A stretch of DNA of 64,000 nucleotides from assembly GCA_030704615.1 (NCBI GenBank), contig CM060731.1, positions 11,160,001 to 11,224,000 on the forward strand. Reading direction: 5' to 3'. The DNA is from Takakia lepidozioides. Taxonomy: Eukaryota; Plantae; Bryophyta. The notes under the pieces were generated by a model. That model searched no databases. It had not been told where the DNA came from and saw only the letters and a program-made list of their open reading frames with translations. How positions within the stretch are numbered: the stretch's first letter is position 1; every line of letters starts with the position of its first letter. Below, piece by piece: positions 3,001 through 37,799 of this stretch. A program made the translations under genes and the position numbers.

Positions 3001-4059
3001 CTCCTCCCTTCCTCTCCTCTCCTCTCCTCGCGTTCTGGATAATTGCCCACCAACACAACAACACAGTACTGGGCAATTTTGAGCTAAATAAAAACAAACC
3101 AATCATTTCAAAGAATCATTTGTTATAATAAATAGTCTCAAATAATGAATATCCCAGGAGTAGAGGGTTTATGCACCTTCCATGGCAAGCCTGCTTTGGC
3201 TGGGTGTGTGTCACCCTGGTTCTCGCTCCCTATAGTCTTCCAAAGTGAGGGAATTGAGGGGGTGGGGGGGGAGAAGAAAAAAACCTTTCCTTTGGGAAAC
3301 TTTGCATTGTTGTGCAGAAGGGCAGCCCCTTCTGAGTGAGAGAGAGAAGCACACAAGATTGTTACTTTAATTCGCGCATTTGGAACTTGGAACATGAAGG
3401 CAAAATCTCAACACGCCTCATAAAAATAAAAATAAAATGTGGACTCTTGCTGTAACTTAGTAATGTGTCATTTGACCGGTAGGCTTACTGCTTTTCGATT
3501 GGAAAGTGGACACCTTCTTTGAACATGATACTTATGTGGTTTGAACCCACAACCAGTAATGAAATGGTATTTTTCTAACCCGTGGTTTAACCCTTAAGCA
3601 CCCACCAGGCCCGTTTTGGGCCTCGCTTTTTGGTTTTTGGTCCTTGGATTTCTCAGATTTCAATCAATTGAGCCCATTTTTTTTCTAGTGGATGCCGTCC
3701 ACTTGTCGGACAGGAATCCAGTGAGCGATTGATGGGATTTTTTGGTTAGGGTCAGGATTTTCGGTGGCCAAGGCGGTGGGGTCTGCTTTGCGGCGTGAGA
3801 GCAGCTCTCCCGCGCTTTTTGGGCTCTCTCACCTTGCGTGTTTGTCTTCCTGGCCTCACTGTGCTCGTGTTTCGGGAGCTCCACTGCGGCGTGTGTATGC
3901 AGGTGGCCGTTGCCCATAGTGTCGTTGAGATTTCTGCATTGTGGTTTTGCTTCATTACTACTCACCTTCATGGATAGCTGTTGCATTCAACGGACTACCT
4001 ACACTGCGATCTCCAGAGCATAGAGCATCTGTTGTTGTAGGTGTGATTGGGGAAGAGGT

Positions 4060-4343
4060 TGTCGTGCATCTAAGCATCGTGCCACAACATACATCGTTGT
4101 CCACCGCACAATCTAAGCACACAATCCTAGAAAGTTATATCACAATCGGATAAGAGATGAGAAATGAGAGAAGTGGAAGACAATGAAAACTCTCAAAGCA
4201 TGAAGCAATCACACTAAGAACAAGCCCTAGTCCTTCCATGACAGCTATCGTGCACCTAAGCATCGTGCCACAACATACATCGTTGTCCACCACACAATCT
4301 AAACACACAATCCTAGAAAGCTATACTACAATTGCCCCCCTAG
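4060..4343 (-). repeat. Copy C 3' terminus: B2 (4060-4144), A2 (~4149-4243), GC spacer, B1 (4246-4330), PPT (4331-4343)
   Basis: Two 85-bp direct repeats flank a unique block. Element-strand junction GCACGATA-GC-TGTCAT. PPT CTAGGGGGGCAAT. Confidence 0.85.
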
Positions 4344-4559
4344 CCGACGATTAGGTCCGTCTGACACCAGATAGCTGATAAGTATCCATCCCAATAAGAT
4401 CATCACTTGGTCATCAATCGCCCAAGTCCCACTATCTGAAGTCAATAGATCGAGAGACCGGGTGCAAAAGTAGCCCCATCGTTACTCGTCTTCCTACAAT
4501 CCATGGCTTCAATTGGGTGTCCATAGCATCAAACTCCCTTTAACTAGACCTTGGATCAC

Positions 4560-5038
4560 TTGTCAACCTCGCCACTGTCATGATCAAGCATCACATGTGC
4601 CACCCCCTTGAGCATTTGTCACACACCAACATGGTCGCGGCACCACCAGCATGCCCACATAGCATGCAACGCAACCCTGCAGATACCACTACAAGGTTAG
4701 GATCTATCATCCCATCCACATGTGGAAGATGACATGGCGCACAATTGTGCACATGGTCCTTCCATACCATGCCATCTCGACCCTCCAGAATCAACACTCT
4801 TGAAGGCAACACCTCCCAGACCCTTAGAATCACACGACCTGTTGTGACATCCAAGATCATAGGCGTTGTCTGCTACAGATACACATAGTCCCAGGATAGA
4901 AACGCCAAACATCTGGCCGATATCCCCCTCCACGTATAGTGGCGTACCTCAATGTGTCTCTGTGTTGGGCAATAGCAAGGTTCAAAAGCCATAGGCATGA
5001 CTCTCTTGAACAACTCTGCCCGTTGGGCACATGCTTGT
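4560..5038 (-). pseudogene. Copy C integrase C-terminus and PHD finger remnant
   Basis: NLAIAQHRDTLRYATIRGGGY...CMLCGHAGGAATMLVCDKCSRGWHM, homologous to A 5823-6647. Confidence 0.85.
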
Positions 5039-5575
5039 TGTCGTGCGCATACATATTGCTACACAACTACATCGTTGTCCAAACCACACCACATATATAT
5101 GCACAATAAAGTAGTCTGCCACAATAGATAAGAAAAACTAAGAACACACTGTTGACACAAAACATGACAACCAAAATCATCACTCTTTCGAATAGAAGTC
5201 GAGCCAGGGGCACCCCAAGCTATGGGGACTCCACCCCACAACAACCTATACTCCCATCATAAGCACACTCAGTCCTAAACGATGCAGGAGCTCGGTCGCG
5301 CAGGCTCAACTCGAGAGAAATGAGCCACGCGACTGCCGCTCTCGTGAAGATAAGGCCATTCAGGTATCAAACTAAACTTAACACCTGATTTAATACTTGA
5401 CCTAAATCCAAGTGTTAAATACAAATAACTAGTTTTATTCTAGTTGTTTTCACACTGTGCTTATTTAACTTGACAGCTGTCGTGCGCATACATATCGCTA
5501 CACAACTACATCGCTGTCCAAACCACACCACATATATATGCACAATAAAGTAGTCTGCCACAATCGCCCCCCTAG
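5039..5575 (-). repeat. Copy A 3' terminus: B2 5039-5123, A2 5127-5475, GC 5476-5477, B1 5478-5562, PPT 5563-5575
   Basis: B1 and B2 are 85-bp direct repeats. A2 matches 16618-16966. Palindrome GACAGCTGTC at 5472-5481. Confidence 0.92.
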
Positions 5576-5822
5576 CTGGTGGGTAGGTCCCTCTACCTCC
5601 AGATAGCTACAAGATGTAATAGCCACAGCCGTACTAAGTCCTCTATCACTGCCCCTATTGCACTCAAACTCTATAGACCAAGAGGCCGGGTACAAGAGTA
5701 GCCCCATCGTTAGTCGCCATCTTGCAATCTGTGAACTTGAGCCAGGACCTCGTGTGTTCAAGGTCTCCTAGTAGCTGGGCCTTGCGTTTCTTGTTAGCCT
5801 TCCATGGTTGTATCCACTCCCA

Positions 5823-7220
5823 CTATCCAATGCAATGTGGACATAACCAATCCCCATCCGAAACCATCTCAAGAGGTGGAGTCAAGCATCTCATATGCCA
5901 ACCTCTAGAGCATCGATCACACACCAGTATGGTGGCTGCCCCTTTAGCAGACCCACACAACATGCACCTCAAACCTGCAGATACCACCGCCAAGTTTGGG
6001 TCAATCCTGCCATCGACATTCGGAAGGTGACATGGCGCACAATTACGCACATGGTCCTTCCAAGTTATGCCATCCCGACCCTCCAAGACCAAGACGCATG
6101 AAGGCAAGACCTCTCGAACCCTCAAAATAACACGTCCTGCAGTCACATCCAGGATCGTATGAGCAGTCTGCTGCAGATAGACATAGTCACCAGGGTTGAA
6201 TCTCCGAACCCCAGGACGATAGCCCCCACCACGTATGGTAGCATACCTCAACGTATCACGGTGTTGTGCAATGGCAAGGTTCTCGAAAGCCATGGGCATG
6301 ACTCTCTTGAACAACTCTGCACGCTGCTCACATGCACGTGCCCACACGTCCGGATCGTCAAGGTTAAGAACTGTAGCAGCTTCTGTGCGAATGGATGTAG
6401 GCAAATCCGGCTCTCGGCCAAAGAGAAGAAAGTATGGTGAGAAGGAGGCAAGTGATGCTTGTTTGCTGAACCTGTAGCCCATGGCTAACCAAGGTAACTG
6501 AAGGTCCCAATCTCCTAGGTGTCCCTTCTGCAAGCCATACTTGCGCAAACCCCTCTTTACTGTCTGAACAACTCTCTCTGCCAAGCCATCGGCCTCAGGA
6601 TGATCCCGAGAAGTGGTGCGGTGGTCTATCAAGGCCTTGTCACACAAAGCCTAAACTCCCCCAAGAACTCTCTCCCTTGGTCCATGAGTACCTCAGCTGG
6701 AGCACCGAATCGGCTAAGCACACAATCCAAGAATGCATACGCAGCTCTCTCACTAGCCTTATCAGGCAATGGAACCAATTCAATCCACTTGGAGAAGTGC
6801 TCCACCATCACCAATACGTACTTGTTGTGGCGCATGGTCAGTGGCAATGGCCCTGCGAAGTCAAGACTCCACCTGTAGCCCAATCCCATGATCGGAAGAG
6901 GGTGCAATTGTGGAGTAGGGGCGTTGAATGAAGCACGCACCCTGTCACACACCATGCACCTAGCCACAAATTGTTGCACCTCTGTGTGCATACCACGCCA
7001 CCAATACTGCCCCTGCAGTAGACTATGAGTGCGTCGCACCCCAAAATGCCCCAACTCCTCATGGGCATGCCGCACTAACCGTGCCCGCTGTGTTGGGTGA
7101 GGCACAATCCTCACTCGACCATCCTCCCACACTCGGAGCGGGTGTGTCCCCTCCCACGTAAACCTCTTGGCTCGTTGTAGGATCCGATCCCTCTCCTTGG
7201 CAGTCACAGTGGCTGCAGTG
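5823..7220 (-). pseudogene. Copy A integrase (HHCC zinc finger, D-D35-E core) plus C-terminal PHD finger; one frameshift near 6650
   Basis: HAHEELGHFG...CMVC; WSLDF...DQGREF...GLAER; CMLC...CDRC...WHMRC...WLCPHC (C4HC3). Confidence 0.9.
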
Positions 7221-7222
7221 TC

Positions 7223-8956
7223 TCAAGTGCGGAGGTAGTCCAACACAACTGAATCCTCATGTATATCTTTGGCGCCACCTTGCTCATTGTTGGCCTCAGG
7301 GTCCTCAGACACTTGATCTACAGTCATCCCTGTTGCAGGTCCAACCTGGCCTTCCGCTGCCAAGATACACAGAAATGCAGATGCATGCCATCCGGGCACC
7401 ATCTCCTCGTCCGTCTCACCATGCCACCGAGCTCCAGTGTCATCCTGCTGGCTCGTGCATGGATTGCGACTCAACCCATCTGCATTGCGATTGACCAAAC
7501 CCGGTCGATGCACCACCTGAAAGTCATACTCTTGAAGGATGAGTGCCCACCGTGCAAGCTTCCCCGTAAGCTTGTCTGACTTCATCAACCACTTGAGTGG
7601 TTGGTGATCCGTGACAAGGGTGAAGAGATTGTCGTATAGATAGCACCTGAAGTGTGCCACGGCCCACACTGCAGCTAAGCATTCTCCCTCATATGAGCTA
7701 TACTTAGACTCTGCAGCATTGTTCGAGCGGCTAGCATAAGCCACTACGAACTCTCTTCCCTCATCATCCACCTGTGTGAGCACCGCTCCAAGCCCCAGCA
7801 TGCTCCAATCTGTATGCAGCTGAAAAGGACGCCCCCTGATAGGTCGTCTCAAGATGGGCGCCGAGGTCAACCTCGCCTTGAGCTCTTGAAAAGCTCGTTC
7901 TTGCTCATCTTCCCACTGCCACTCCTGGTCCACCTTGGTCAGCTTGGTTAGAGCCTTTGCAATGGCACTAAATCCCTTAACAAACCGTCTGTAATAGTTT
8001 GCTAACCCCATGAAAGCTCGAACTCGGCTCACATCCGTGGGGCGTGGAACCTGTGCAATGGACTCTACCTTAGTCTGCTGTACCCCCAATCCTCCAGGAT
8101 ATATCATATGACCCAGATACTCAATCTGGTTGTGGAAGAACTTGCACTTGCCCGGATGTAACTTCAATCCGTGCGTCCTCAAGCGCTCAAATACCCCCTG
8201 AAGGTGTCTCTCATGCTCCTCCACCGTAGCACTAAAGATGATGATGTCATCTATGTAGCACCGAGCAAACTCCACCCCTGCTAGAATCCTGTCCATGACT
8301 CTTTGAAACTCAGCGGGAGCGTTTTTAAGCCCAAATGGTAAGAACCACCACTGGTATAGGCAATCCTTCCCGTGCTCATTGATCCCCCAGAATGCCGTCT
8401 TTTGCTTATCCGCCTCTTTGATCGGCAACTGGTGATATCCGGATCGTAAATCCAACGTGCTAAAGACCTTGGAATGCCCAATGGCATCAAAGATCTCCTC
8501 TGGTGTCGGCATGGCATACCTATTGGACTTGGTCTGACGATTTACAGGCTGGTAATCACCGCACATACGTCTCTCCGTCCAATTGCCATAGACATCCTTC
8601 TTGGCTGGCATCACTGTGGCTGAAGCATACTCTCCACCAGAGAGCTCCACCAAACCTGCCTCCCAGAGATCTTGAGTCCTCATCTGAATCAAAGACCTCT
8701 CCATGTCACTGTATCTATAGGGTCTCCAAAAGATTGGCGTGTCAGTGGCCAACTCAATACGGATCTCTTGACCCTTCAGTGCTCCCAAGTCCTTCAAACT
8801 GAAGGCAAAGCAATTCCTGTAAGCCCTCAGGAACCGCCGTATACGTCGTCTCTCTCCTCCGATGACAATGGGTCCAATGTCAGGCTCCCAATTGTCCTCC
8901 GTAACTGCAACCTTAAGTCCAGTGGGCTTAGAGGTAGAGGACGCGTCCCGTGGTTG
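7223..8956 (-). CDS. Copy A reverse transcriptase and RNase H (Ty3/Gypsy type)
   Basis: [53 protein letters not shown]. Open in frame from the TAG at 8959-8957. Confidence 0.92.
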   Translation of the reverse strand, partial: QPRDASSTSKPTGLKVAVTEDNWEPDIGPIVIGGERRRIRRFLRAYRNCFAFSLKDLGALKGQEIRIELATDTPIFWRPYRYSDMERSLIQMRTQDLWEAGLVELSGGEYASATVMPAKKDVYGNWTERRMCGDYQPVNRQTKSNRYAMPTPEEIFDAIGHSKVFSTLDLRSGYHQLPIKEADKQKTAFWGINEHGKDCLYQWWFLPFGLKNAPAEFQRVMDRILAGVEFARCYIDDIIIFSATVEEHERHLQGVFERLRTHGLKLHPGKCKFFHNQIEYLGHMIYPGGLGVQQTKVESIAQVPRPTDVSRVRAFMGLANYYRRFVKGFSAIAKALTKLTKVDQEWQWEDEQERAFQELKARLTSAPILRRPIRGRPFQLHTDWSMLGLGAVLTQVDDEGREFVVAYASRSNNAAESKYSSYEGECLAAVWAVAHFRCYLYDNLFTLVTDHQPLKWLMKSDKLTGKLARWALILQEYDFQVVHRPGLVNRNADGLSRNPCTSQQDDTGARWHGETDEEMVPGWHASAFLCILAAEGQVGPATGMTVDQVSEDPEANNEQGGAKDIHEDSVVLDYLRT

Positions 8957-9249
8957 CTATGCTGCAACCTCTTGAGCAGTACTCCCTTCTTGCTCAGTCA
9001 ATGACAAGGCCTCATCCTGCCCCATCATCTCATCATTGAGAACCTCCTCATCCCGAGAAGAATCCCCAACCTCATCCATCACAGCTGCCTTGGCTACCAA
9101 CTCCATCTGAACCTCGAGCACCTCCCACGTGTGCCATGGATGTCTACACCCCGTGGTCCTCACCGGCTCGCCCCCACTTGCTGCCTGTACCGTCTCGGTA
9201 GGCAGAGAGACCGTCAAGGGAAGTGCACTCCGCACTCTACGTTGCTCAG

Positions 9250-10125
9250 CCATAGCCAAGCTGATAATCCAGGTCAAGCAATTGAGATCCATTGCTTGCC
9301 CCAACACCTGACGACGTGATGCCTCAGAAAAAGAGGGCACCGCCGTGGTACCAGTGGTGAAACCCATCGCCCGCTCGCGCTCGTCAGCATTGGGCTCTAC
9401 TAATTACTGCAACTGGCTATCCCACAAGAGGCCATGTCCACCATCCTGAAAAGCATGAGATCCTGGAAAGCTAAGCAGTGTAGGCAATGCGGCTTGTGGG
9501 TGACCCACCTTATTGACCACTGCCAAAGGTGATCGGTCATCATGTCTCACACGTTGAGACTGTCTCCCTATGTCCAAAATGCTATCCACCGTCAGGTGTG
9601 GTGGCCGCTGCACCCCATCAAATGCACACTTAAGCAGTGCGGGTGGCATCAAGTTAGTCCACCAAAGTCGTGGACGATGAGCCCGTGATCCCACTGCAGC
9701 TGCATCCAGCAACACTGCTGACCCAAGCCACGACCGGACTTAATGCACACTGGCCATCACCCTGGCCCGAGAATCACCCATCAGTGGCACATTCTCCAAG
9801 ATGTATGCTGGAGATACAGCTTGATGAAGCTGCAAGTGGCGCAAAACCCGCACCATCTCCCAAAACAGACCCGTCCTCGAGTCTCTTGCGCCCCCAATAA
9901 GGAAATGTCTGCTGGCAAGGCTTGTTGGTATCCACGAACTGCAGACACATGCAACAAGTCAGGGTACTGCTGTACCAACTGAGCCACATGGCGCAGTAAG
10001 ACGCGTCGTGCAATCTCATCCCTCTCCACATACATGTAACGCCTTACCCGCACACCTGCCTGTAGCACAGCAGCCAATCCGGTGCTGATCCCGCCAAACA
10101 AGTCCAGAAGGCAAATGCCTTCATC
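9250..10125 (-). pseudogene. Copy A DNMT3-like C5 cytosine methyltransferase, catalytic motif IV deleted
   Basis: Motif I LDLFGGIST, II YVERDE, VI ENV, VIII DAAAVGSRAHRPRLWWTN, IX ERERAMGF, X RQVLGQAM. About 87 bp containing GWPCQG is missing near 9885 relative to copy B. Confidence 0.88.
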
Positions 10126-10479
10126 CGGATACTGCCACACAATAGGTGTGGTATCCAATGGTGACAACTGAGGTGGTCCTGGTGCAATACCCGCACTCTC
10201 CTCCTCTCCTGACGGTACAAAAGCCTCTACCCAGGCTTGTTGCACCCGTCGATCAGCAACCTACTACAAATCCTTGCTCGTACCCCACAATGGAGTGTGA
10301 GCAACCATGGCAGGCAACTCCGCCATACCATGCATGTCATCCTGCTCTGCTGGAGATGGCACATCCTCTGCATGGGCATTGCCTTCCAGCAACTCTCCAG
10401 GCCAACTAACTGCAGCTGTAAAGGCAGCTAGTGTTGGCATCTTGCCCCGTTGGGCAGCCGCAATACCCCCAATGAATGT

Positions 10480-10870
10480 CACAGGGAGCTGTGCACGACG
10501 ACCATCCCCTGACTGCCATCCAGGCCTGTAGAATGCTGACTCCTCCCAAAAGTCCAGGGTGAAGCTCATGGGGTATAACACTGCCCCACCAACAAGGACA
10601 TCGTAAGAGACCGCGTCTGTCACAATGGCCTTGGCTCGCATTACTGAGCCATCGATAAGATGATCCGGCTGTAGTCTAATGGCCAACTGATGTCGTGTCA
10701 TGCCCCGAGCCTGCTCTGATCCTCCCAGAGATGTCTGTATCTGGAAAGGACAAGGCTCCATATCCGCCTCCATGAGGCCCAAACCTGCAATAGCAGCTCT
10801 ACCCAACATCAGTGGCTGAGCTCCCGAGTCCAACAAGACCCGTAGTGGCCGGTACTTCTTGCCTGCCGGT
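10480..10870 (-). CDS. Copy A retroviral-type aspartic protease domain
   Basis: RVLLDSGAQPLMLG ... YDVLVGGAVL within ORF 10264-11178. Confidence 0.85.
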
Positions 10871-11317
10871 CCACTCAAAGTAAAAATGCCTCCCTGGTTG
10901 TCTAACAAGACAACTCCAGGTGTCACCATGGCGCGCTCAAAGGCTGGCCTAGCTGGCAGCTCCGTCAACCTGGCAGCTGCAGCTTGCCATGGCGCAGCCG
11001 TGGCAGTCTTGATCCTCAAATCCGAGGATCCCTCTGCCACTACACCTTCCAGTAACTCCGCAGAAGATGAAGTGACCTCCCCACTCTCAAAGAGTGTTGC
11101 TGCTAGTCTGAACACTGCAGCTGGTCTTACCCCCGGCGTCGCAATCATGGTTGCCGAGAACAGTGGGGCTTGACACACAGAGGTGGCTGCCCCAACAACA
11201 CACCGGCTGCACTAGCCTTGGCAGCAGGTGTCAGTGCTGCACGTGTAGCTCTCCCCAATGGCATAGAAACCTCCGCCTCGGTAACAGTCAGGCGAGAACT
11301 AGGTGCCATGGATGGCG

Positions 11318-13067
11318 TCAACACTGTCTCCGCCAATGTGAATGACTGAGGAGCCTCGCCTGACGGCTTGCCTCCCCATGTTGTGGATCCAACTCCACCT
11401 CTACACCTCGTGGCTCAGGAACTCGTGCTGCTCCTCGAGTCACGGCTGCAGCAGACTCCACCTGCTTTAGTGGTAGTGCTGCTCCGCACATGAATCCCAT
11501 GCCTCCCATATCTCCTCCCTCAGGCGCAGGAGGTGGACCATCCCGCCTGGGAGCCGGTACCGCCTGAGCTGTAGCCATGGCAGCGAGCCTCTGCTCTAGC
11601 TGCTGAAGCCGGTTGGCCATGCCTTGGTCAACACCCTGACCTCCGCGTCCGTGGCCATGTTGAGCTTGCCCTTGGCCTGCACCTCGTGCCCGACCACCTC
11701 GTCCTCTCTGGGCTGGTCCACCTCGCCCCCGGCCACCATTGTTCCCTTGGAACTGGCCTGGGCGCAACTCAGGATGCAAGTCATAACACTGGGCATCTCC
11801 ATGCCCATACTTGCCACAATGCCCACACTGCAACTGTGCAGGCTGTGTTTGTGCCGGCCTTTTGCCACTCTCTGAGCAATCTCTCTTGACATGGGGTCCT
11901 CCACATGTCCAACATATCACCCCTGGTTGCTGTTGGCCTGCAAAAGATGCCACGGGCCTCTGCACCTGAGGTCCCCTGTAAGCTCCATGGAACTTGGGTT
12001 GGGAAACCTTGCCCCCCTGACCACGCTGTTGGGCAGTCCCTTGTGCCTGTGGGCTGGCAATTGCGCCTCGTGCAGGCATGTCCTTGCCAAACCAATGGTA
12101 ACAACTCGCTCCTCCACCATGTTGAGCTCAATCCGCTCAGCCAGCAGAAACACATCTGCTAATGTGGGTTGGGCTGCTTGTAACAGGGTTGCATCCCGCA
12201 CCCTTCTCCTGAGCTCCTTGTCCAAAATTCCATACCAAAACTGGATTGCCTGAGCTTCAGTAACCCCTTGGGTCACACTTATCAAGCGCCTCATACGAGT
12301 GTAGGCCTCTCGCAAGCTCTCATTGGGTTTGCGCTGGAAGTCTTGCAAACTTTGCAGCTTCTCTGTCCGTACACCTTGGTAGTTCCTCCGCAACTCCTGG
12401 AAGAACTCCACCACCGGGTGAATCTAGGCACATGTGTTGTAGTCGTGGCAGGAGGAGTAGTAGCACCTTTTGAACTGGTACCACCTGCAGAAGTATCGGC
12501 ACTACTTGTTCCACTACTAGTGCTGGTAGTGGGAGATATCGGTACTGATGCAGCTACTGGTCGCATCGTGCCTCGAGTAATGGAGACGTAGTCAGATGAC
12601 CAATACATCCTCCACTCCTCAATCTCTGCTTCATGTCCTCGCCTGAACTCGTGGTAATCGTCCATAGGCGGGCCTTCCAAATGCTGGAACAGCCCTTTCC
12701 ACGCCATGAATGGGGTGAATAGCTGTGGATTGCGCATTTGCTGCAAATCACACCAGCTGTCGAACTCCTGGATAAAGTCATCCAACTCGATTGTGCCCAC
12801 AGCTCCAGAGTACCTACGAGGCCCCTTGGTAGCTCCATACATCTCCTCCATGTCGTCCCACAACAATGGCAAATGAAACTGCACACCTGTTGATGAAGCT
12901 TCCGAGTCTGTGTCTGACTCTGCACTAGTTGAGGGTGGCGGTGAAGGTGGTCTGAACCAAATACCTCGTCTTGTGAACCCACTCTCACTATTACTGCCTG
13001 TAGCCGTACTCCCCTCAAAACCCTTGGGTAACTCCGTGATGACACTCACAATGTGCACCTCCCCCAC
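11318..13067 (-). pseudogene. Copy A gag (capsid-like region, two CCHC zinc knuckles, RGG-rich tract), frameshifted
   Basis: FQRKPNESLREAYTRM; CWTCGGPHVKRDC; CGHCGKYGHGDAQC; GGRGRGG repeats. Confidence 0.85.
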
Positions 13068-14759
13068 GTGACACTATAGGGCTCTAGTACTAATTCTAAT
13101 AGTGACACGGGTGGGCACCTGTTGCAGTTTAAGGGTCATATCCCAATGGCTCAGGGCACCTGCACCTGCATCCACCGCAAGAACTCCTATGGTTGGCTGG
13201 TCATCAACCCAGCCTCACCATAGAAGAAACACTGGTGGTCTTGCTGGTCATCACTCCAGCCTCACCACCGACAGCATACTCTAGGATTGACCGGTGATCA
13301 AATCCGGCCTAATCCCTATGAAAGCAAGCGCCCACACAAAACCAACATGGCGCACAGTCAAGCATGCAGGTGTTGGGGGGGATCCAAACACAAGAAATCA
13401 AAACATCAACACCCCCACACCAAAATCCAGCTGCAATGCTGATCCTGCAGAATATCCCAGCCCAAAACCCCGGACTGACTGGCCTCCACCAAGAGAGGCT
13501 TTGGCAACTACGAGTACAAGGTAATGAAAATAGTACAGAGATGGAGGGGAAGAATAGAAGCCCGCCAAGCAAGATCTAATCCTGATCTATGCTATCAACT
13601 TCCAGACTTCTCTCAAAGTGCCTCGCTCTGCATGATGGTAAGGTGTAGGAGGTATATCTATGTCCAGAAACCTGCCACTAACCTTGTCCCAAGCTACAGT
13701 AGCTCGCTCTAACCAACCCTCCTCCTCTTTCTGCCAGGTAGAGACAAAGCAACACACTGCTATCTCCCGCTCACTGAACACTAAAGAAAACAAAGGTAGG
13801 GTCTGATAGTCTCTCAACTCGAAAGCTTTGAGACGGTTGCGGGTGTCCTCATTGCGAATGACTGCATCTCCTTCAAACAGAACAAACTTGTCCTCGCTAA
13901 TGAACCCCCGCTCGTGGTTGCCTTGTGCAGAGCGTGTCCGGCTGCAACGCTGTCTGATTGCACAAACTTGTGTAGCTCCTGCTCCTCTGCTCTAGTACAC
14001 CACAGCCTTGTGGCTGAACACCTTGGTCCCCGGGGCTGTCTTTGGCTGTGTTCCAAGCCTAGCTTTCACCCACTTTGGTATTTCACTTACAGCTGCAGAA
14101 CTGCTGGCTCCAACAGAGTTCTGACTGTCCAAAGCGATATTGAGGCCCTCAACGCCAACTACAGCAGTCTGTTGTCTACTGCTAATGCCTGACTCCCAGT
14201 ATGCAATCAACTCGTCCAACTGTTCTCCACTCAAATCAGTCTGAGTTCCTTGGGAAACATAAATCTTGTCCCCTTGTGTGCACAGGCTAAGAGAAGAGAC
14301 CTGCCCTTCAATTACGTCCTCATTTCCCCCAGCCATACAAGGAGGACATCCACAGATTTGTCTCTCAAATAGACCAGAATTGGTTCTAGAAACAGAATTG
14401 TGGATCTTTCACGACACACTCACACTCTAAAAATTCCATAGATTTTTAGCAGAGTCCCAAAAACAGAAACCAGGTCTAGATAGGTAGATTTCCCCTTTCT
14501 GCAGCTATTCCCTCAAAAACTGAGTCAAACGGAGCTCATTTGACAGAGATATGGCCAAAGCGGCTCTGTAACTATAATAAATGACCTTAAATAGAAACAA
14601 ATACAACGAAAAATTATTTTAAATTGGTTCCCTTTGGTTCCCTGTTCCCACCTTTTTTTTTTTTTTTTTTTCACTACAGTATAGTCACCGTTCCCAGGTG
14701 CCCATCGATTAATGCACCAACCAAATTGGATTCACCAACGCAATGGTGTATGCTGATGC

Positions 14760-16270
14760 GATACATCTGATGTCAGCCGTCTGTCCAGTACCACAGATTG
14801 GAGGAGAGTAGCAAATCACACGCCCATCTTCCCCAAGCATAGTACAATCCAGGGCTGAAGGATGCAATTGCGACACTGCGCAGATCACATCATCTCCAAA
14901 GGGGCAACTAGCTTGTGAAAGAGATGCCTGCAAACAGGAGTTCCTGGTGGCAGCCATAACAGAAGGCCCGCTCCCTTCTTCCCATTTGCCTCGGCTAAAT
15001 CACCAATCTCTTCAAACAGGGGCACCTATTATCCTCTCCCGTGTATCTACACATTCCGGAGAAGCGGGATCAGTGTTGCCACATCCCTCGACAATATACT
15101 CGATAGATTTGGTGAACCCGATGACCACCTTTGACAGGGCTCAACGCACTCATCCCAGGTATATATTCCCATGTGTACTGTAGGTAGATGGTCATCTCAA
15201 GCTCATCGCCTTCAAAACCCTCCTTCACAACACAGCGCTTCCATCTGTGCAGCACTAAAGGCCTCCCAGGTAACTTTCTACTAAAGGATCTCCTTTGCGG
15301 TCCACAGTCACATTGTGAAGATCACACGCCAAATCCAGTAGCTGACTGCAAATTGTTGTAGCCTCTAATTCGGGTAAAATAATAAACACAACTGGATCGC
15401 TCAGGCACTGTCGACCTTATGGCAGTACACCGGCCCCTAGCTTCTTCTCTATTTTCTACCCTCCTTTGTAAGGGTTAACACGGCACATGATAAGCTAGGG
15501 GCTGGAGAAGCAGTACTGGAATCCATCTCATGCTTTTAAAATGACGCCAACGTCAGCCCATAATTTATCACTCAGCTCCCTGCAACGGATTGTTGTCCGC
15601 TATAGCTCTGTGCCAGGTCAATAGGGATTATGGGCTAAGGTAAACCTTGTGGGCTGCAGCCATTTGTGAGGCATTTAGTGACTGGTGGGGACGAGGCCCT
15701 TACACATTGTCTTCCTGTAGAGAACTTCCTCAAAACAGGTGTAAAAGATTTCAGAGAAGAGTAGAAAAGAAGCAACCGGCACTCACTGCACCCTAGTTTG
15801 TTGACGGCCCCCCGTGTGTCACGGCCGTGGACATTAAGAATCCATATCGGCTCGTAGCCCTCAGCAAGCAGGGAAGGAGCTGCAGTCTCTTCAGCAAAGG
15901 GCGCGGGGATAGTTGACTTGGTGCGCCTGGTCTCCGCACCAACACCAAAGTACTGCATCAACGTCTGTCCAGCTGAGAGCTTCACGCCAGAGCCAGCAGC
16001 CTTCAAATGAGGCAGCGTGTAAGGTAGATTGAGACGAAGAGTGATTCTTCTCCACAGATTTCAGTAGCATCTCCTTATGGGTGTCTACATCATTGCTCGG
16101 TACAGAGAACTCGTACGTGATCCAGTGGTGCAGGTACACGTTGTTCAGAGGCACAGACATACCCTTCTCGTCCACAAACTCCGCATAGCAGTCCCTAATT
16201 CCCAGATGGCCCTTCGGAGCATCCACCACGAAGTGTTTGTTCTTTACGTCTCCAAGACTAGAACAATGCG
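14760..16270 (-). pseudogene. Captured SURNod19 (stress up-regulated Nod 19)-like gene fragment inside copy A leader
   Basis: VDAPKGHLGIRDCYAEFVDEKGMSVPLNNVYLHHW; QYFGVGAETRRT; EGYEPIWILNVH..DTRG..KLGCSECR; CDLHNVT; GEDGRVICYSPPICGTG. Contains stops and a probable intron ~15330-15777. Confidence 0.8.
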
Positions 16271-16600
16271 GCGTCGCTGCTGGGTGGCTGGTTGCAGCCG
16301 CATCACTAATCGAACAACTCTAGAATGCTACCACAGCCTGCCCTGAAATCACCGCTCCAGTGGTCACCCCATTGGCCGCTTCCTCATTATATCCTCTTTC
16401 TTTATTGCTGCCACTTAATCCCCATTCTCAGATATATACACAGGTTGACAAAAATCGTAACAACATCTCAAGCTTTTTGTTCTGCTCCACTCGGCACACC
16501 TAACCAGTCTAACTGCAGACTCCCCGTGACCAAGCTACATTATAATAGTGCTTAAAAACAAAAACATCGTATCTAGCTTAGCACTAGAAAACTAGATAGA

Positions 16601-16617
16601 GCTCATCTCTCTCGAGT
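16601..16617 (-). promoter_or_regulatory. Putative self-priming primer-binding site of copy A
   Basis: Directly abuts A1 and is the exact 17-nt reverse complement of 16800-16816 inside A1. No tRNA-type TGG start. Confidence 0.6.
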
Positions 16618-16966
16618 GATAAGAAAAGCTAAGAACACACTGTTGACACAAAACATGACAACCAAAACCATCACTCTTTAGAATAGAAGTCGAGCCAGGG
16701 GCACCCCAAGCTATGGGGACTCCACCCCACAACAACCTATACTCCCATCATAAGCACACTCAGTCCTAAACGATGCAGGAGCTCGGTCGCGCAGGCTCAA
16801 CTCGAGAGAGATGAGCCACGCGACTGCCGCTCTCGTGAAGATAAGGCCGTTCAAGTGTCAAACTAAACTTGACACCTGATTTAACACTTGACTTAAATCC
16901 AAGTGTTAAATACAAATAACTAGCTTTATTCTAGTTGTTTTCACACTGTGCTTATTTAACTTGACA
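16618..16966 (-). repeat. Copy A 5' terminal repeat A1 (349 bp)
   Basis: Same length as A2 (5127-5475), about 11 substitutions counted by eye. Confidence 0.92.
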
Positions 16967-16970
16967 TTGT

Positions 16971-19190
16971 GTCCACACATCCAGATCATCAAGGTTGAGG
17001 ACTACTGCAGTCTCCCTGCGAATAGATGCAAGCAAATCTGGCTCTTGGCCAAAGAGCAGGAAATAAGGCGAGTACGAGGCAAGTGATGCTTGCTTGTTTG
17101 CTTGCTTGCAAGTGATGCTTGCATAGCCAACCAAGGTAGCTGAAGGTCCCAATCTCCCAAGTGTCCATTCTGCAAGCCATACTTGCACAAGCCTCGCTTG
17201 ACTATTTGCACAACCCTCTCGGCCAAGCCATCAGCCTCGGGATGATCCCGAGAAGGAGTGCGGTGATCTATCAAGGCTTGCTCACACAAAGCCTGAAACT
17301 CCCCCAAGAACTCTCTCCCCTGGTCCATGAGTACCTCGGCTGGAGCACCAAATTGGCTAAGCACTCGATCTAAGAATGCATACGTAGCCCCCTTACTTGT
17401 CTTGTCAGGCAATGCCACCAGTTCAATCCATTTGGAGAAATGTTCCACCATCATCAGCACATACTTGTTATGGCGAATCGTTACTGGCAATGGGCGTACG
17501 AAGTCAAGACTCCAACGATAGCCCAAACCCATAATGGGTAAAGGATGCAATTGTGGAGTAGGTGCATTGAAAGAAACCCGCACTCTATCACACACCATGC
17601 ACTTTGTCACTAACTATTGCACATCCGTGTGCATGCCCCGCCACCAATACTGTCATTGCAGCAAACTATGAGTGCGCCGCACCCCAAAATGTCCATACTC
17701 CTCATGGGCATGGCGTACCAATCGCGCTCGTTGTGTTGGATGAGGCATAATCCTCACTTGTATATCCTTCCATACTCGGAGTAGGTGAGCCCCCTCCCAC
17801 TTGAACCTCTTGGCTCGTTGTAGGATCCGATCTCTTTCCTTAGCAGTCACACTGGCTGCTGTCTCTCTAGTACAAAGATAGGCCAACACTGCTGCATCTT
17901 CATGTACATCCTTAGCACCACGAAGCTCCTCACTGATCTCTGGAAAGTCATGCACACTATCTCTATGACCAATCGCATGGGATGGACCAGCTTGAGCTCC
18001 CATTGCTAGAATGCATAAAAAGGCAGATGCATGTCATCCTGGCACCATCTCCTCATCCATCTCACCATGCCAATGAGCTCTTGTATCATCAAGCTCACTT
18101 GTGCATGGATTGCGACTCAATCCATCCGCATCCCGGTTGACTATTCTGGCTCGATGCACCACCTGGAAGTCGTACTCTTGAAGCATAAGTGCCCACCATA
18201 CAAGCTCCCATGTAAGCTTGTCTGACTCCATCAACACTTCAATGGTTGGTGATCCGTGACAAGCGTGAAGAGATTGACATAGAGGTAGCATCTAATGTAT
18301 CACTGCCCATACTGCAGCTAGACACTCCTTTTCGTAGGGACTGTACTTCGCCTCGGCATCATTGTTCGAGCAGCTAGCATATGCCACTACGAACTCTCTT
18401 CCCTCATCATCCACGTGTGTGAGCACTGCTCCAATCCCCAGCATACTCCAATCCGTATGTAGCTGGAAAGACCGCCCCCGAATAGGTCGCCTCAGAATAG
18501 GCGCAGAAGTCAATCGAGCCTTGAGTTCCTCAAAGGCTTCCTCCTGTTCCTCCTCCTACTGCCACTCTTGACCCACCTTGGTCAACTTGGTAAGAGCCTT
18601 TGCAATGCTGCTAAATCCCTTGACAAACCGTCGATAGTAGTTTGCCAACCCCATGAAAGCACGAACTCTGCTAACATCGATGGGGCATGAAATGCGTGCA
18701 ATGGCCTCCACCTTCATCTTTTGAACACCCAATCCTCCAGGGTATATCATGTGGCCCAAATACTCAATCTGGTTATGGAAGAACTTGCACTTCCCAGGGT
18801 GCAATTTCAACCCATGCGTTCTCAAGCGCTCAAACACCATCTGAAGGTGTCTCTCGTGCTCCTCAATCGTAGCACTAAAGATGATGATGTCATCAATGTA
18901 GCACCGGACGAAGTCTAGCCCCGCAAGAATCATATCCATGACCCTCTGAAACTCTGCAGGAGCATTCTTCAACCCAAATGGTAGGAACTGCCATTGGTAC
19001 AAGCAATCCTTCCCATGTTGGTCAATCCCCCAGAATGTCGTCTTTTGTTTGTCAGCCTCTTTGATTGGCAAATGGTGGTAAACGGATCGCAAGTCCAATG
19101 TGCTAAACACCTTTGCATGCCCAATGGCATCAAAGATCTCCTTTGGAGTTGGCATGGCATATCTATCGGACTTAGAATGACGGTTCACAG
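16971..19190 (-). pseudogene. Copy C integrase, RNase H and RT remnants
   Basis: WSLDF..DQGREF..AER; LHTDWS; YIDDI. RT N-terminus deleted and fused to DNMT near 19190. Confidence 0.88.
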
Positions 19191-20676
19191 CCCAAATCAA
19201 CCCTGGACCATTGTCTCGAAAAGCATGAGATGAGGAAAAACTCATGAGTGTAGGCAAGGCCGCACGTGGTTGTCCCAATCGATTAACCACTGCCAAAGGT
19301 GGATGGTCATCATGTCAATGTCGCACCCTCTGTGGTTGTCTCCCTTGGTCCAAAATGCACTCAACCGTGAGGTTGGGTGGTTGTTGATGGAATCATAGGC
19401 TCTCTTGAGCAACTCTGGTGGTGCAAGATTGGTCCACCACAACCTAGGCTTATGTGCCCATGAACCCACTGCAGCTGCATCCAATAATACGGTTAGTCCA
19501 ATCCAAGACCGCACCTGATGCACATAGCCATAACCCTGGCCCGATAATCCCCCATGAGAGGAACATTCTCCAGGATGTAAGCTGGAGGTTGCACTTGCCT
19601 CACCTGCAAGTCACGCAACACTTGTAACATCTCCCAAAACAAATGTGACATTGCATCATGCAAGCCATTCCCATGACCTGCGGGAGAGTGTCCTTGGCAA
19701 GGCCATCTATCACCAAGTCAATTGCACCATGCTGGCCCAAATCATCCGCCCCCAGCAAGGTAATGTCTGTTGGAAAGGCCTTTTGGTACCCTTGAATTGC
19801 TGAGAGAGACAGCAACTCAGGATACTGGTGTGTGAGCAAGGCAACGTGGCGCATAGAATTACATCGAGCTATCTCATCATTCTCCACATACAAATACTTT
19901 TGTACTTTAATCCCAGCTTGCAACACTCCTGCAAGCCCAGTGCTCATGCCTCCAAACAGGTCTAGCAAACAAATCCTTGAGTCAGATGGTTGCCAGGTAA
20001 TGGGCACTGTGTCCAAATGAGCTAACTAAGGAGGTCCAGGTGATGTCACTGAACTCCCCTCATTCATCAATGGAAATGCCTCATGCCATGCTTGGTGCAC
20101 ACACTCGTCTGCTACTCGCTGCAAATTCCCAACCGTACCCCACAGTGGAATATGAACAGGCACATGAGGAAGCAACTCAGCCTTGTATGCCAGTTGTTTG
20201 TCCTCATCAGATGGTGGCCTATCATCTGCATGGCTATTACCTCCAAGAGCTCACCACCCCAAGCCACAACCCCTAAGAATGCAGCCAATGTGGGCATCAT
20301 GTTCATATGATCCACCGCTACATTCCCAATAAACCGCACTGGGAGCAGTGCACGTTGGCCATCCCCTGACTGCCACTCCGGCCTGTAGGATGTTGTTTCC
20401 TCCCAAAAATCAAGAGTAAATCCCATGGGGTACAACACAGCCCCACCAACAAGCACATCATAGGACATCGCATCCGTAACAAAGGCTTTAGCTCTCATGA
20501 CTGAGCCGTCCGTAGGATGATCCGGCTGCAATCGAATGAAGAGCTCATGGCGTGTATCCATCGCGTCTTCTCTGAACCACCCAAAGATGTTTGAATTTGG
20601 AAATGGCAAGGCTCCAAGTTCGCCTCTGTAAGGCCCAAGCTTGCAATTGCTGCTCTCCCCAACATCAAAGGTTGTG
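19190..20676 (-). pseudogene. Copy C DNMT3-like methyltransferase and protease remnants
   Basis: ICLLDLFGGMSTG, YVENDE, frameshifted IDLVI/WPCQG, YILENV, DAAAVGSWAHKPRLWWTN; YDVLVGGAVL. Confidence 0.85.
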
Positions 20677-32777: not shown

Positions 32778-33133
32778 TGTCAAGTTAAATAAACACAGTG
32801 TGAAACTAACTAGAATAAATCTAGTTTTTTGTATTTAACACTTGGATTTAGTTCAAGTGTTAAGTCAGGTGTCAAGTTTAGTTTGACACCTGAACCGTCT
32901 TATCTTCACGAGAGCGTCAGTCGTGCGGCTCATCTCTCTCGAGTTGAGCCTGCACGACCGAGCTCCTTCACTGCTTAGAATCGGAGTGTGCTTATGAAGG
33001 GAGAATAGGATGTTGTGGGGTGGAGTCCCCATAGCTTGGGGTGCCCCTGGCTCGACTCTTAGTTTTAATGAGTGATTGTGTTGTGTTGAGTGTTTCTTTG
33101 TTATCAGACATGTGAGTTTAGTTATTTCAATCA
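32778..33133 (+). repeat. Copy B 5' terminal repeat A1 (356 bp)
   Basis: Matches 43264-43619. Confidence 0.92.
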
Positions 33134-33149
33134 CTTGAGAGAGATGATC
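33133..33149 (+). promoter_or_regulatory. Putative self-priming primer-binding site of copy B
   Basis: ACTTGAGAGAGATGATC is 15/17 complementary to GCTCATCTCTCTCGAGT at 32928-32944. Confidence 0.55.
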
Positions 33150-33507
33150 TTGCATCTGTGAGTGCCAGAGGTGAGTTTAGTTGTAGCACTTGTGGTTTTT
33201 GTTTTGAAAGTGAGAAAAGAAAATTATGGTGGTTTGTAGATTATGTTTGTGACAAGCTGGTTGAGACAGAGAAGCGATTATCTGTGTTCAGGTAATCTTT
33301 AGTTAGAAAGATGTCAAGTTTGGCCACTGGAGCGATGGTTAGAAAGCACGGTGAAGCCTTCTACTGTCTATCAGCTTTGTCATCGTTGTTGCCATCAAAA
33401 GGCTGACGGTGTGACAATGGCGGTGCCTTCCAGTGCCTAGGTTGAACGTACATGCCAGCACCTGGCATCGTCGGAGCATACTGGTCACCACCAACCTGTG
33501 CATTATG

Positions 33508-33769
33508 CGCCACCGTCGGTGCGGAAGCCGATGACGAAAGAATATCCTTCTTGCTAAAGGAGTTGGATGGTAAAGATATTACGGAGGTGATTGCTTCCGG
33601 TAGGGAGAAGTTTGCATCTATGCCATCAGGCGTAGGCGGCGGCGGCGGTGTTGTGGTGGCTTCCTCTGGTGGAGGTGGAGATGGAGGTGCTGCTGCTGCA
33701 CCTGTTGGAGAAAAGGAGGAAAAGAAGGAGGAGTCTAATGATGACATGGGTTTCAGCCTTTTCGACTAA
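33508..33769 (+). pseudogene. RPP2: Captured 60S acidic ribosomal protein P2 fragment (N-terminus missing)
   Basis: [39 protein letters not shown]...[13 protein letters not shown]. Confidence 0.88.
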
Positions 33770-33944
33770 GCTTGGGATGCAGTTTTGCAGCGCATCCGAT
33801 GGTTACTTTGATGCTATCTCAACTGCATGTGGCTGTTGAGCATTACTTAACAGTCGTTTTATACCTGCGCTGGTGCTGGTGGAGGTGACGCCATCGCCAC
33901 AGGAGCACCTTGCTTTATCCTCGGGGCGGCTGCTTGTTCTTCAG

Positions 33945-34065
33945 CTTATGTCTTCAACCTCCTCCAGATAGTCATTGAAGTCTCGAAGTGATGAAAACCC
34001 GTCCTCTCGTTTATTGAACAAGTTCTGAATTTTCCGACGCACAACAATCTCCTTGTTCATTTCGC
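33945..34065 (-). pseudogene. Captured MAT1 (CAK assembly factor) fragment
   Basis: KEIVVRRKIQNLFNKREDGFSSLRDFNDYLEEVEDI. Confidence 0.75.
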
Positions 34066-34229
34066 AGTGTTCGGCTTGTCCTTCTTGATCAACGCACTCT
34101 CTCAGACATTTCTGTGCTCTCAACTCCAAGCTAGGAAGAAAGAGGAGCAAAAGCTGGGGGCTGGATTCCGGAACTTGGTCGCAGACGGGCATTTGAAGAG
34201 GCCTTCATGAGTATGTGGATGAAGATAGC

Positions 34230-34830
34230 TGATATTGGAGAAGGTCATAAGTTGCATGAACCACAACCAAAGTTCCCTGCTTTGTGGTGGCACTCATGCA
34301 GAATGATTCTACCCCTTGTGATCTCAATGTCTTTTGAAACATGGGCCAGCAATCTGCTGCCTCTGGGATATCCATCTTGTTGTAAGCCACTACGTGTGGT
34401 TTAAGTGCCAAGTTGGCGTTGAAGAGCTGCAGCTCCAAGCGCACTGCTTCATACTCCTGAACAGCTTGCACACTTGTACCGTCCACCACCTGCACTAGGA
34501 CACGGCAATGCTCTGTGTGACGGAGGGACTCATGGCCCAAGCCCCCATGTGCTCTTCCAGCAGGCCGGGTAGATCAGCCACCACCATTGATGTGTCAAAA
34601 TCCAATGCCACTACCCCTAAGTTGGGCAGCAGTGTAGTGAAGGGATAGCTGGCAATTTCAGGGCGCACAGCACTGATGGCACTCAAAAGTGTGCTCTTGC
34701 CAGCATTTGGAACGGCCACTATGCCCACATCTGCAACCAGCTTCAGCTCCAATTCCACCCACATTTCTGCACCCTCTTCGCCATTTTCGGCCATCTGAGG
34801 AGTCTTGTTGCGACCAGTTTTGAGGCAGTG
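34230..34830 (-). pseudogene. Captured Obg-family GTPase fragment
   Basis: [23 protein letters not shown]; [11 protein letters not shown]; DLPGLLE; [15 protein letters not shown]; NKMD. Confidence 0.88.
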
Positions 34831-35599
34831 TTGCCTCACCCACCCCGACCTCCCGGCAGCAGCAGCTCCTGCTTCCCTGGAGTGGTCAATTCCAGCAGAA
34901 CATCTCCATTCCTTTAGTCTTCCCAACGCCGTGGCAACTCTGTGTTGACATTGGCTTCACCTGCTTTAGCCTTGGAAAGCTATTATGAAGGTTTGAAGAA
35001 GGCGTCCAAGGAATTCTTAGGGAACCTGCAGTGAATCGCAAAAAACGTGGGAACAAGGAACCAAAGGAAACCAATTGAAAATAGTTTTTCCTTGTATTTG
35101 TGTCTATTTAAGGTCATATATTATATTTACAGAGCCTCTTTGGCCATATCTTTGTCATATGAGCTCCGTTTGACACAGTTTTTGAAGGGATAGCTGTAGA
35201 AAGGGGAAATCTACCTACCTATTTAGTTTTTTGGACTCTGCTAAAAATCTATGGAATTTTTTGAGTGTGAGTGTGCTATGAAAGATCCACAATTCTGTTT
35301 CTAGAACCTGTTGTGGTTTACATGAGAGACAAATATGTGGATGTCCTCCTTATATGGCTGGGGGAAATGATGACGTAATTGAAGGGTCGGTGGTGAGGCT
35401 GGAGTGATGACCAGCAAGACCACCAGTGTTTCTTCTATGGTGAGGCTAGGTTGATGACCAGCCAACCATAGGAGTTCTTGTGGTGGATGCACGTGCACAT
35501 GCCCTGAGCCACTAGGATATGACCCTTAAACTGCAACAGGTGCCCACCCGTGTCACTATTAGAATTAGTACTAGAGCCTTATAGTGTCACGTAGGGGAG

Positions 35600-37300
35600 G
35601 TGCACGTTATGAGTGTCATCACGGAGTTACCCAAGGGTTTTGAGGGGAGTACGGCTACAGGCAGTCGCAGTGAGAGTGGGTTCACAAGACGAGGTATTCG
35701 GTTCAGACCACCTTCACCTCCACCATCAACTACTGTAGAGTCTGACACAGACCTGGAGGCTTCATCAACAGGTGTGCAGTTTTCTTCGCCATTATTGTGG
35801 GACGACATGGAGGAGATGTATGGAGCTACTAAGGGGCCTCGTAGGTACTCTGGAGCTGTGGGCACAATCGAGCTGGATGACTTTATCCAGGAGTTCGACA
35901 GCTGGTGTGATTTGCAGCAGATGCGCAATCCACAGCTGTTCACTCCATTCATGGCGTGGAAGGGATTGTTCCAGCATTTTGAAGGCCCGCCTATGGATGA
36001 TTACCACGAGTTCAGGCGAGGATATGAAGCAGAGATTGAGGAGTGGCGGATGTATTGGTCACCTGACTACGTCTCCATTACTCGAGGAACAACGCGACCA
36101 GTAGCGACATCAGCACCAATACCTCCCACGGCCAGCACTAGTAGTGGAACAAGTAGTGCTGGTACTTCTGTAGAAGGTGCTACTACTCCTTCTGCCACGA
36201 CTACAACACATGTGCCTAGATTCAGCCCGGTGGTGGAGTTCTTCCAGGAGTTGCGGAGAAACTACCAAGGTGTACGGACAGAGAAGCTGCGAAGTTTGTA
36301 AGACTTCCAGCGCAAATCCAGTGAGAGCCTGCGAGAGGCCTACACTTGTATGAGGCGCTTGATAAGTGTGACCCAAGGGGTTACTGAAGCTCAGGCAATC
36401 CAGTTCTGGTATGGAATTTTGGACAAGGCGCTCAGGAGAAGGGTGCGGGATACAACCCTGTTACAAGCAACCCAACCCACATTAGCAGATGTGTTTCTAC
36501 TGGCTGAGCGGATTGAGCTCAACATGCTGGAGGAGCGTGTTGTTACCATTGGATTTGGCAAGGACATGCCTGCACGAGGCGCAGCTGCCAGCCCATAGGC
36601 ACAGGGGACTGCCCAACAGCGTGGGCAGGGGGGCAAGGTTTCCCAACCCAAATTCCATGGAGCTTACAGGGGACCTCAGGTGCAGAGGCCAGTAGCATCT
36701 TTTGCAAGCCAACAGCAACCAGGGGTGATATGTTGGACATGTGGAGGACCCCATGTCAAGAAAGATTGCCCAGAGAGTGGCAAAAGGTCGGCACAAGCAC
36801 AGCCTACATAGTTGCAGTGTGGGCATTGTGGCAAGTATGGGCATGGAGATGCCCGGTGTTATGACTTGCACCCTGAGTTGCAGCAAGGCCAGTTCCAAGG
36901 GAACAATGGTGGCCGAGGGCGAGCTGGAGCACCTCAGAGAGGACGAGGTGGTCAGGCACGAGGTGTAGGACGAGGGCAAGCACAGTATGGCCAAGGACGT
37001 GGAGACCAGGGCGTTGACCAAGGCATGGCCAACCGGCTTCAGCAACTAGAGCCAAGGCTTGCTGCCATGGCCACAACTCAGGTGGTACCAGCTCCAAGAC
37101 CTGAGGGTCCACCTCATGTTCCTCCTTAGCAGCGTCATCCTGACGGAGGAGACATGGGAGGCATAGGATTTATGTGTGGGGCAACACTACCATTAGTGCA
37201 GGTGGAGTCTGCTGCAGCCGTCACTCGAGGAGCAGCACGAGTTCCTGAGCCACGAGGTGCAGAGGTGGAGTTAGATCCACATCGTGGGGAGGCAAGCCAT
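35600..37300 (+). pseudogene. Copy B gag with two CCHC knuckles; premature stops
   Basis: Homologous to A 11318-13067. Confidence 0.87.
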
Positions 37301-37799
37301 TAGGCTAGGTTGCCTCAATCATTCACCTTGGGGGAGATAGTGTCGACGACATCCATGGCACCTAATTCCCGCCCGACAGATACAGCGGCCGTTATTGTGC
37401 CATTGGGGAGAGCTACACGTGTAGCACTGACACCTGTTGCCAAGGCTAGTGTAGCCAGTGCGTTGTTGGGGGCAGCCACCTCTGTGTGTCAAGCCCCACT
37501 GTTCTCGGCGACCATGATCGCGACGCCAGGGGTAAGACCAGCTGCAGTGTTCAGACTAGCAGCAACACTCTGCGAGAGTGGGGAGGTCACTTCATCTTCT
37601 GCGGAGTTGGTGGAAGGTGTAGTGGCAGAGGAATCCTCGGATTTGAGGGTCAAGACTGCCACAGCTGCGCCATGGCAAGCTGTAGCTACCAGGTTGACGG
37701 AGCTGTCAGCTAGGCCAGCCTTTGAGCGCGCCATGGTAACACCTGGAGTTGTCTTGTTAGACAACCAGGATGTCATTTTCTCTTTGAGTGGACCGGCAG

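Follow-up and report, generated by a model that had tools for sequence, protein, structure and literature searches.

Three copies of one LTR element (copies A, B and C) were found by self-comparison in the 64-kb window, i.e., the whole stretch of eukaryotic, repeat-rich DNA that was analysed, and their repeats are split into two segments, A and B, such that the left end carries A and the right end B. The reading that we hold to be fairly probable is that the integrase cuts a palindrome inside the LTR, while host end-joining links the two ends that reverse transcription leaves. The provirus would then be a permuted 2-LTR circle, and its inserted ends (TGTC...GACA) would come from the middle of the terminal repeat.

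By the domains that they encode, the copies are Ty3/gypsy elements with a cytosine methyltransferase and a PHD-finger DDE integrase, kin of KnitGypsy-Dnmt3. A domain scan of open reading frames (ORFs) returned gag, C5 methyltransferase, RT, RNase H, an H2C2 zinc finger, rve and PHD, with gag followed by RT-RNase H-integrase and the rve DDE core as in Ty3/gypsy elements; copy A holds gag, DNMT, RT, RNase H, rve and PHD. PF00145 is present in copy B, where the GWPCQGHS and ENV motifs are found with PC and ENV intact, as well as in two relatives (L029 and P0007), and the ORFs of a further relative, L050, gave no methyltransferase Pfam match. The scanned ORFs of copies A and B, L050 and L029 gave no protease Pfam match, the copies being frameshifted. 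In the PDB, relative P0013 is matched best by Ty3 Gag-Pol, and the named proteins closest to the RT of the element belong to the liverworts Calypogeia and Marchantia, which would suggest a bryophyte-like host. A PHD finger takes the place of the chromodomain on the integrase, and 34 residues separate the second catalytic D from the E in 76 of 77 matched relatives (core P0001-P0240; window 5826-7222), one fewer than the 35 counted by hand in the chromovirus integrase of the window. The TGTC...GACA ends and the 4-bp target duplication (TSD) agree with the TG...CA ends and 4-6 bp TSDs of Ty3/gypsy elements, as do a PBS after the left repeat, here of the self-priming type, and a PPT before the right one. 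Two complete matching terminal LTRs are not found, as all 13 left ends carry A without B and the right end is B. A viral sequence collection yielded 40 pattern matches and no confirmed relative, and a search for shorter proteins, made with a possible Ginger origin of the integrase in view, returned only unnamed or family-like ones among 120 listed of 408. One integrase-PHD relative (P0204) is named from the chlorophyte Tetrabaena socialis, hence the clade may extend beyond streptophytes.

Table 1. Positions of the three element copies and their parts in the 64-kb window.
Feature	Position	Strand	Remark
Right flank of copy C, ACCT in element sense (AGGT on +)	4056..4059	-	candidate 4-bp target duplication, partner outside window
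Copy C terminal B2, 89 nt	4060..4148	-	ends GCACGACA; right integrated end
Copy C A/B joint, CG	4148-4147	-	first two bases of B2
Copy C internal A, 95 nt	4149..4243	-	starts TGTCATGG; probably shortened by deletion
Copy C junction palindrome	4240..4249	-	GATAGCTGTC (family form GACAGCTGTC); predicted integrase cut site
Copy C B1, 89 nt	4246..4334	-	immediately 3' of PPT
Copy C PPT	4335..4345	-	GGCTAGGGGGG
Copy C integrase C-terminus and PHD finger	4584..5034	-	frameshifted; copy A interrupts at 5035-5038
Copy A, complete	5039..16966	-	A-body-B-GC-A-T-B; nested in copy C; TSD ACAA
Copy A B2	5125-5039	-	
Copy A A3	5475-5127	-	
Copy A B1	5566-5478	-	
Copy A PPT	5577-5567	-	
Copy A PBS	16617-16601	-	complementary to 16816-16800
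Copy A A5	16966-16618	-	
Copy C integrase N-part, RNase H, RT and DNMT region	16971..20676	-	
Copy B, complete	32778..43705	+	A-body-B-AC-A-B; TSD GAGC
Copy B A5	32778-33132	+	
Copy B PBS	33133-33149	+	complementary to 32928-32944
Copy B PPT	43162-43172	+	
Copy B B1	43173-43261	+	
Copy B A3	43264-43618	+	
Copy B B2	43619-43705	+	
Copy C gag-side continuation beyond nested chromovirus-like insertion	60491..62524	-	homology stops at 62524

Copy C lies on the minus strand and, interrupted by two nested insertions, is recognisable from 4060, its 3' end, as far as 62524 (Table 1). Its end reads PPT-B-GC-A-B, which bears out the split architecture that the first-pass annotation had described. The uniform B length of 85 bp reported there for six instances holds when counted from TG (85 nt, or 87 from ATTG), but with the PPT as the starting point copy C has a terminal B of 89 nt, versus 87 nt for copies A and B, a discrepancy that arises from the differing A/B joints of the three window copies (CG kept in copy C, T in copy A, nothing in copy B). 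All six B copies end in GCACGA(C/T)A, as had been noted, and the B of copy C is indeed diverged, with 37-39 ungapped matches out of 87 to the B of copies A and B and an alignment that takes two compensating 1-nt gaps. The GC-TGTC junction ascribed to all instances is present in copies A (GACAGCTGTC) and C (GATAGCTGTC), i.e., in 2 of 3, but copy B (GACAACTGTC) reads GACA-AC-TGTC; this variant and the GATA-GC-TGTC of copy C each amount to one C:G to T:A change.

The same layout was found outside the window in an integrase-PHD alignment search, from which the best 80 of 418 confirmed metagenome loci were taken; after removal of 10 repeat insertions and 26 loci that were unclassifiable owing to contig ends or decay, 44 remained. 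These loci come from short-read metagenome assemblies, in which repeats may collapse or chimerise. Among the 44 classified from the best 80 of 418, B-palindrome-A or A-B stands at the 3' end of 22 distinct loci from two other families, while the 3' end is at the first B in 21, one of which (L028) is ambiguous. In the single locus L010, one whole B-GT-A lies between the PPT and the self-priming site (8527-9317), which may be a collapsed assembly or the form that a 1-LTR circle would give. Complete relatives start at A and are flanked by 4-bp target duplications, and the full order PPT-B-palindrome-A-B with a 4-bp TSD recurs in the two other families, one of them ~50% identical in integrase, although the A and B sequences are unrelated between the families that share the layout. 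Because layout and palindrome recur in this way, the permutation is no one-off event and its mechanistic origin, for which the first-pass annotation had argued, is supported; the variants shared by B1 and B2 of the same copy (see below) point the same way. Ten elements with both ends have a 4-bp TSD that is exact in 7, has one mismatch in 2 and is missing in 1 (L048). The spacer of the palindrome is 2 nt in 24 of 24 tabulated junctions, a set outside which L059 (GACATCTATC) falls, and 7 are perfect palindromes; of 26 deviations, 24 are C>T or G>A, the changes that decaying methylated DNA would show. Across all families, A opens with a TGTCRTG-like sequence and B ends in CAYGACA, forming an imperfect 7-bp inverted repeat, from which copies A and B depart with TGTCAAG.

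At 10 of 12 left ends, the 15 bases that follow the 5' A can pair with a segment within A (p<=0.023 against shuffles), the complement being not significant in L002 (p 0.43) and L019 (p 0.14). Unrelated sequences serve for this complement in three families, a fourth family (L010) has it at 16 of 16 positions, and where a TATA-like box was found, the complement begins 26-32 nt after it. A tRNA primer was rejected, as the PBS complement sits inside A. The complementarity instead suggests self-priming that matches the description of Tf1, Sushi and Tcn1, which have no tRNA primer site and in which the predicted 5' end of the RNA can pair with the bases that follow the left repeat (PMC6317226, PMC5006619). 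Since the PPT adjoins B and the self-primer adjoins the 5' A, the repeat copied by reverse transcription would be B-GC-A, and hence its ends would differ from the inserted ends.

At the A/B joint, where the ends of B-GC-A would meet, 7 types were found among 15 copies of family 2, namely AATAT (5 copies), AAT (5), ATAT, AATTAT, AATTCAT, a short loss and a ~230-nt deletion at a 3-nt microhomology (L060, L074 and L050 were parsed by eye from sequence strings), in contrast to the PPT/B joint, which is AT in 25 of 27. The longer of these A/B joints extend along the primer-site sequence, and the joint of L006 holds a 17-nt insert, 11 nt of which are copied from nearby A. Many contigs of the host species cover the family, and they show A/B joint variants of -1, -2, -3 and +1. 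Templated inserts and microhomology are marks of polymerase-theta joining. The B1 and B2 of a copy have 67 minority substitutions in common in family 2, compared with a mean of 30.6 and a maximum of 58 in 5000 shuffles, and three diagnostic sites distinguish copy A from copy B in both of their B's; the own B2 is the best match to the own B1 in only 6 of 13 family-2 copies. As B1 and B2 are homogenised within copies, both stem from one recent template, with the joint probably made anew. The A/B joint is therefore likely an end-joining scar, as at a 2-LTR circle junction.

Eleven elements with both ends comprise 5 with the two-LTR form, 6 with the one-LTR form (A-body-B), which is thus as common in relatives, and 0 with the mirror form. 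In the left-end order, judged from the window and the metagenome loci, B was upstream of A and the PBS at 0 of 13 left ends, in line with the first-pass expectation that copy C would not begin with a full B+A LTR, and the mirror form (A-B-GC-A-body-B) was seen at 0 of 13. Descent of the one-LTR copies as a separate lineage was rejected, since the two forms are interspersed on the tree (9 changes versus a shuffled mean of 8.3), a weak test because the tree is star-like, with 16 of 24 inner branches open. Their origin as older decay products was also rejected, the one-LTR copies not being older than the two-LTR copies (p=0.82, one-sided). The mixing of forms and the lack of any greater age of the one-LTR copies fit an origin of the forms at insertion, as far as so weak a tree can tell.

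The proposed route would begin with self-primed, Tf1-like reverse transcription, giving a linear B-GC-A-body-B-GC-A whose ends would not be integrase sites. The integrase would nick after CA on both strands of GACA^GCTGTC, leaving recessed CA-3'OH ends with 2-nt overhangs, which is the geometry of normal 3'-processed LTR ends. The A/B scar would be made anew in each cycle, either before insertion, as in a 2-LTR circle, or afterwards, as repair of a break. If the primer-side palindrome is used for both ends and the leftover ends are joined, A-body-B-GC-A-B would result; if one LTR's worth is used, the product would be A-body-B, a dead end lacking the 3' R region. Only the former would keep a full 3' repeat and could be copied again, such that the lineage could not do without end-joining. 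In every case the left end derives from the primer-side palindrome. A simple, symmetric 2-LTR-circle model was rejected, as it predicts the mirror form seen in 0 of 13.

The same internal cut could also be combined with another origin of the A/B joint, in which the RT jumps end to end within the particle, from the plus-strand 3' end onto the other cDNA end. Two-base clamping by the RT of Tf1 bears on this alternative, and among the 15 joints of family 2, 5 have the sequence that an AT overlap of 2 nt should produce, the rest clustering around a flush join; a jump in one direction might also help to account for the missing mirror form. However, the templated 17-nt insert of L006 and the ~230-nt microhomology deletion, which belongs to L047, resemble host alternative end-joining, and no version of the jump was found that strictly excludes the mirror form. 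We consider it unlikely, although it is the alternative that fares best beside host end-joining.

A further alternative follows the PAT and Ngaro elements: RNA would run from A1 into B2, the internal B1-A2 would template a circle, and a DDE integrase would have replaced the tyrosine recombinase. PAT and Ngaro have split direct repeats in precisely this A1-B1-A2-B2 order, shared with TOC1 and VIPER, as outlined in PMC4157794; the absence of the mirror form follows naturally, and the Klebsormidium repeats were called DIRS-like by de Mendoza et al. (2018). PAT, TOC1, Ngaro and VIPER, however, encode a tyrosine recombinase (PMC4157794), whereas the window element has an rve integrase, a PPT, a self-primer, TG...CA ends and a 4-bp TSD. 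No tyrosine recombinase was detected among 33 window ORFs plus another 66 from copy A, L050 and L029, in a scan that took ORFs of at least 85-150 aa. In addition, four families have a conserved PPT adjoining B1 and a self-primer adjoining A1, B2 begins at the PPT cleavage point, the joint should be inherited and yet varies and carries primer-site letters, and one-LTR copies with exact TSDs would require a second process. This alternative is accordingly rated as distinctly improbable. The element thus reads as one that works like a self-priming Ty3/gypsy element with circle-junction integration and not as one of DIRS order.

A one-off rearrangement, nested solo-LTR insertion or assembly artefact, suggested by the nest of insertions in the window and by a short A in copy C that is itself probably a deletion, is hardly credible, as it is contradicted by the recurrence of the layout in families with unrelated A and B, and three host copies of two subfamilies share that layout with 22 loci of two other families (among the best 80 of 418), TSDs bracket the permuted form and the B copies track their own element.

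The first-pass annotation had further suggested that a fixed 85-bp distance from the PPT to the cut may be a spacing constraint, here considered as a ruler for the integrase. The last G of the PPT is 89 nt away from the end of B in each of the three window copies, diverged as they are, and the host contigs show no indel inside B above a 3% threshold. Nor does B vary freely in length within family 1, where the distance is 117 in 14 of 14 readable loci. However, the relatives with the same palindrome differ in spacing, with 108 in L010 and 174-191 in family 2, which varies even within itself. The ruler is thereby refuted at the level of the clade and must be seen as very improbable; the equal B length in the window is explained by shared descent, and a family-specific spacing preference may be compatible with the data.

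KnitGypsy-Dnmt3 of Klebsormidium nitens combines a Gypsy pol with a Dnmt3-type cytosine methyltransferase, and the legend of Fig. 4c ascribes to it a DIRS-type repeat structure with Gypsy domains (de Mendoza et al., 2018, PMC5890265). It thus shares a Gypsy pol and a C5 methyltransferase with the window element, and its repeats may be split likewise; the available text and supplement of PMC5890265 contain no TSD, palindrome, primer site, PPT or integration mechanism, nor any occurrence of 'phd'. A 2026 preprint mentions Gypsy-DNMT3 once in its available text. Klebsormidium RTs, not necessarily those of KnitGypsy-Dnmt3, and the window copies fall in one group of 30 rows with an SH-aLRT of 99, in a quick tree with few outgroups.

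IS3 family elements integrate by way of a circle junction. These and the Ginger elements have an rve-type DDE enzyme, TG...CA ends and an action on ends within continuous DNA, as is proposed for the window element, but are DNA transposons without RT; Ginger transposons end in TGTNR and make a 4-bp TSD, with a PHD in one family (PMC2836005). Tf1, Sushi and Tcn1 have the self-priming complementarity in common with the window element (PMC6317226, PMC5006619), but are chromoviruses with matched full terminal LTRs, in contrast to its PHD-finger integrase and LTR-internal inserted ends. The integrases of HIV-1 and foamy virus act on the palindrome at the 2-LTR junction, where their cut yields CA-3' ends (PMC4372172, PMC1905944), and an internal palindrome cut that regenerates CA-3' ends is likewise proposed here. 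In these viruses it is a back-up route at a real LTR-LTR junction, whereas in the window element the palindrome lies inside the LTR, the real LTR-LTR junction would be kept as a proviral scar and the route would be obligatory.

No description of the palindrome or of the integration mechanism was found in the literature searched, which lay outside Repbase and the subscription journals, where a prior account may exist; the family and its repeat order are already in print, the mechanism apparently not. To our knowledge, all well-studied LTR elements insert the ends made by RT. Circle-junction integration was once proposed for retroviruses and was later treated as a side path, and LTR-internal ends in a natural lineage would make it testable on a native substrate. 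We see the chances as evenly balanced for the broader proposition that a green-plant clade has moved its integrase sites to mid-LTR, with every productive copy a permuted 2-LTR circle and the circle-junction route obligatory. If true, this would call for an integrase able to cut within continuous DNA (the family has 34, not 35, D-to-E residues) and for a dependence on host end-joining, and it would supply an integrase that may insert from a 10-bp internal site. Such a lineage might further serve as a bridge from LTR elements to DIRS-order split repeats or back, and LTR-finding programs that require two matching terminal repeats would miss this DNA-methyltransferase-bearing family or set its bounds wrongly.

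The short A of copy C, which the first-pass annotation had taken as a distinct and natively short segment, does measure 95 nt, but a native origin is probably wrong. When contigs of the host species from four public runs are compared with the end of copy C, those that diverge on one side do so at 4236 (13 in run X1, 4 in X2 and 10 in X3) and those that diverge on the other do so at 4238 (4 in X2). The two points enclose a 3-nt overlap, which is the pattern expected from a deletion at a microhomology. The middle of A has thus probably been lost by deletion at the 3-nt microhomology at 4236-4238; a rare short subfamily is the alternative, though not the simplest reading. At the loose end at 4149, relatives run on into a PBS-like primer site, the complement of which is absent from the copy C end (best 9 of 14). 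The A of L047 is likewise short, at 75 nt, and meets B at a microhomology of 3 nt. The window lacks the 5' end of copy C and contains TGTCATGGAAGG once, and because a native short A is probably wrong, the earlier prediction that this end starts TGTCATGGAAGG probably fails beyond the first 8 bases.

The near-identical copies A and B hold different captured pieces of host genes between the primer site and gag: SURNod19 fragments with a poly-A run at their end in copy A (14660-16600), and fragments of a 60S acidic ribosomal protein, MAT1 and an OBG GTPase in copy B (33140-35040). The position looks like a slot for swappable cargo. The chromodomain insertion in copy C (20677-60490) ends in TGTCGCG...CGCGACA with a likely 5-bp TSD (TTGTG/CTGTG), and the first ~165 nt and the last 75 nt of a unit at 23706-23942 stand separately at its two ends; it is possibly a second family with off-register ends. 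Two tandem arrays unrelated to the element lie at 28168-29196 (~90-bp units) and 44669-47430 (~370-bp units).
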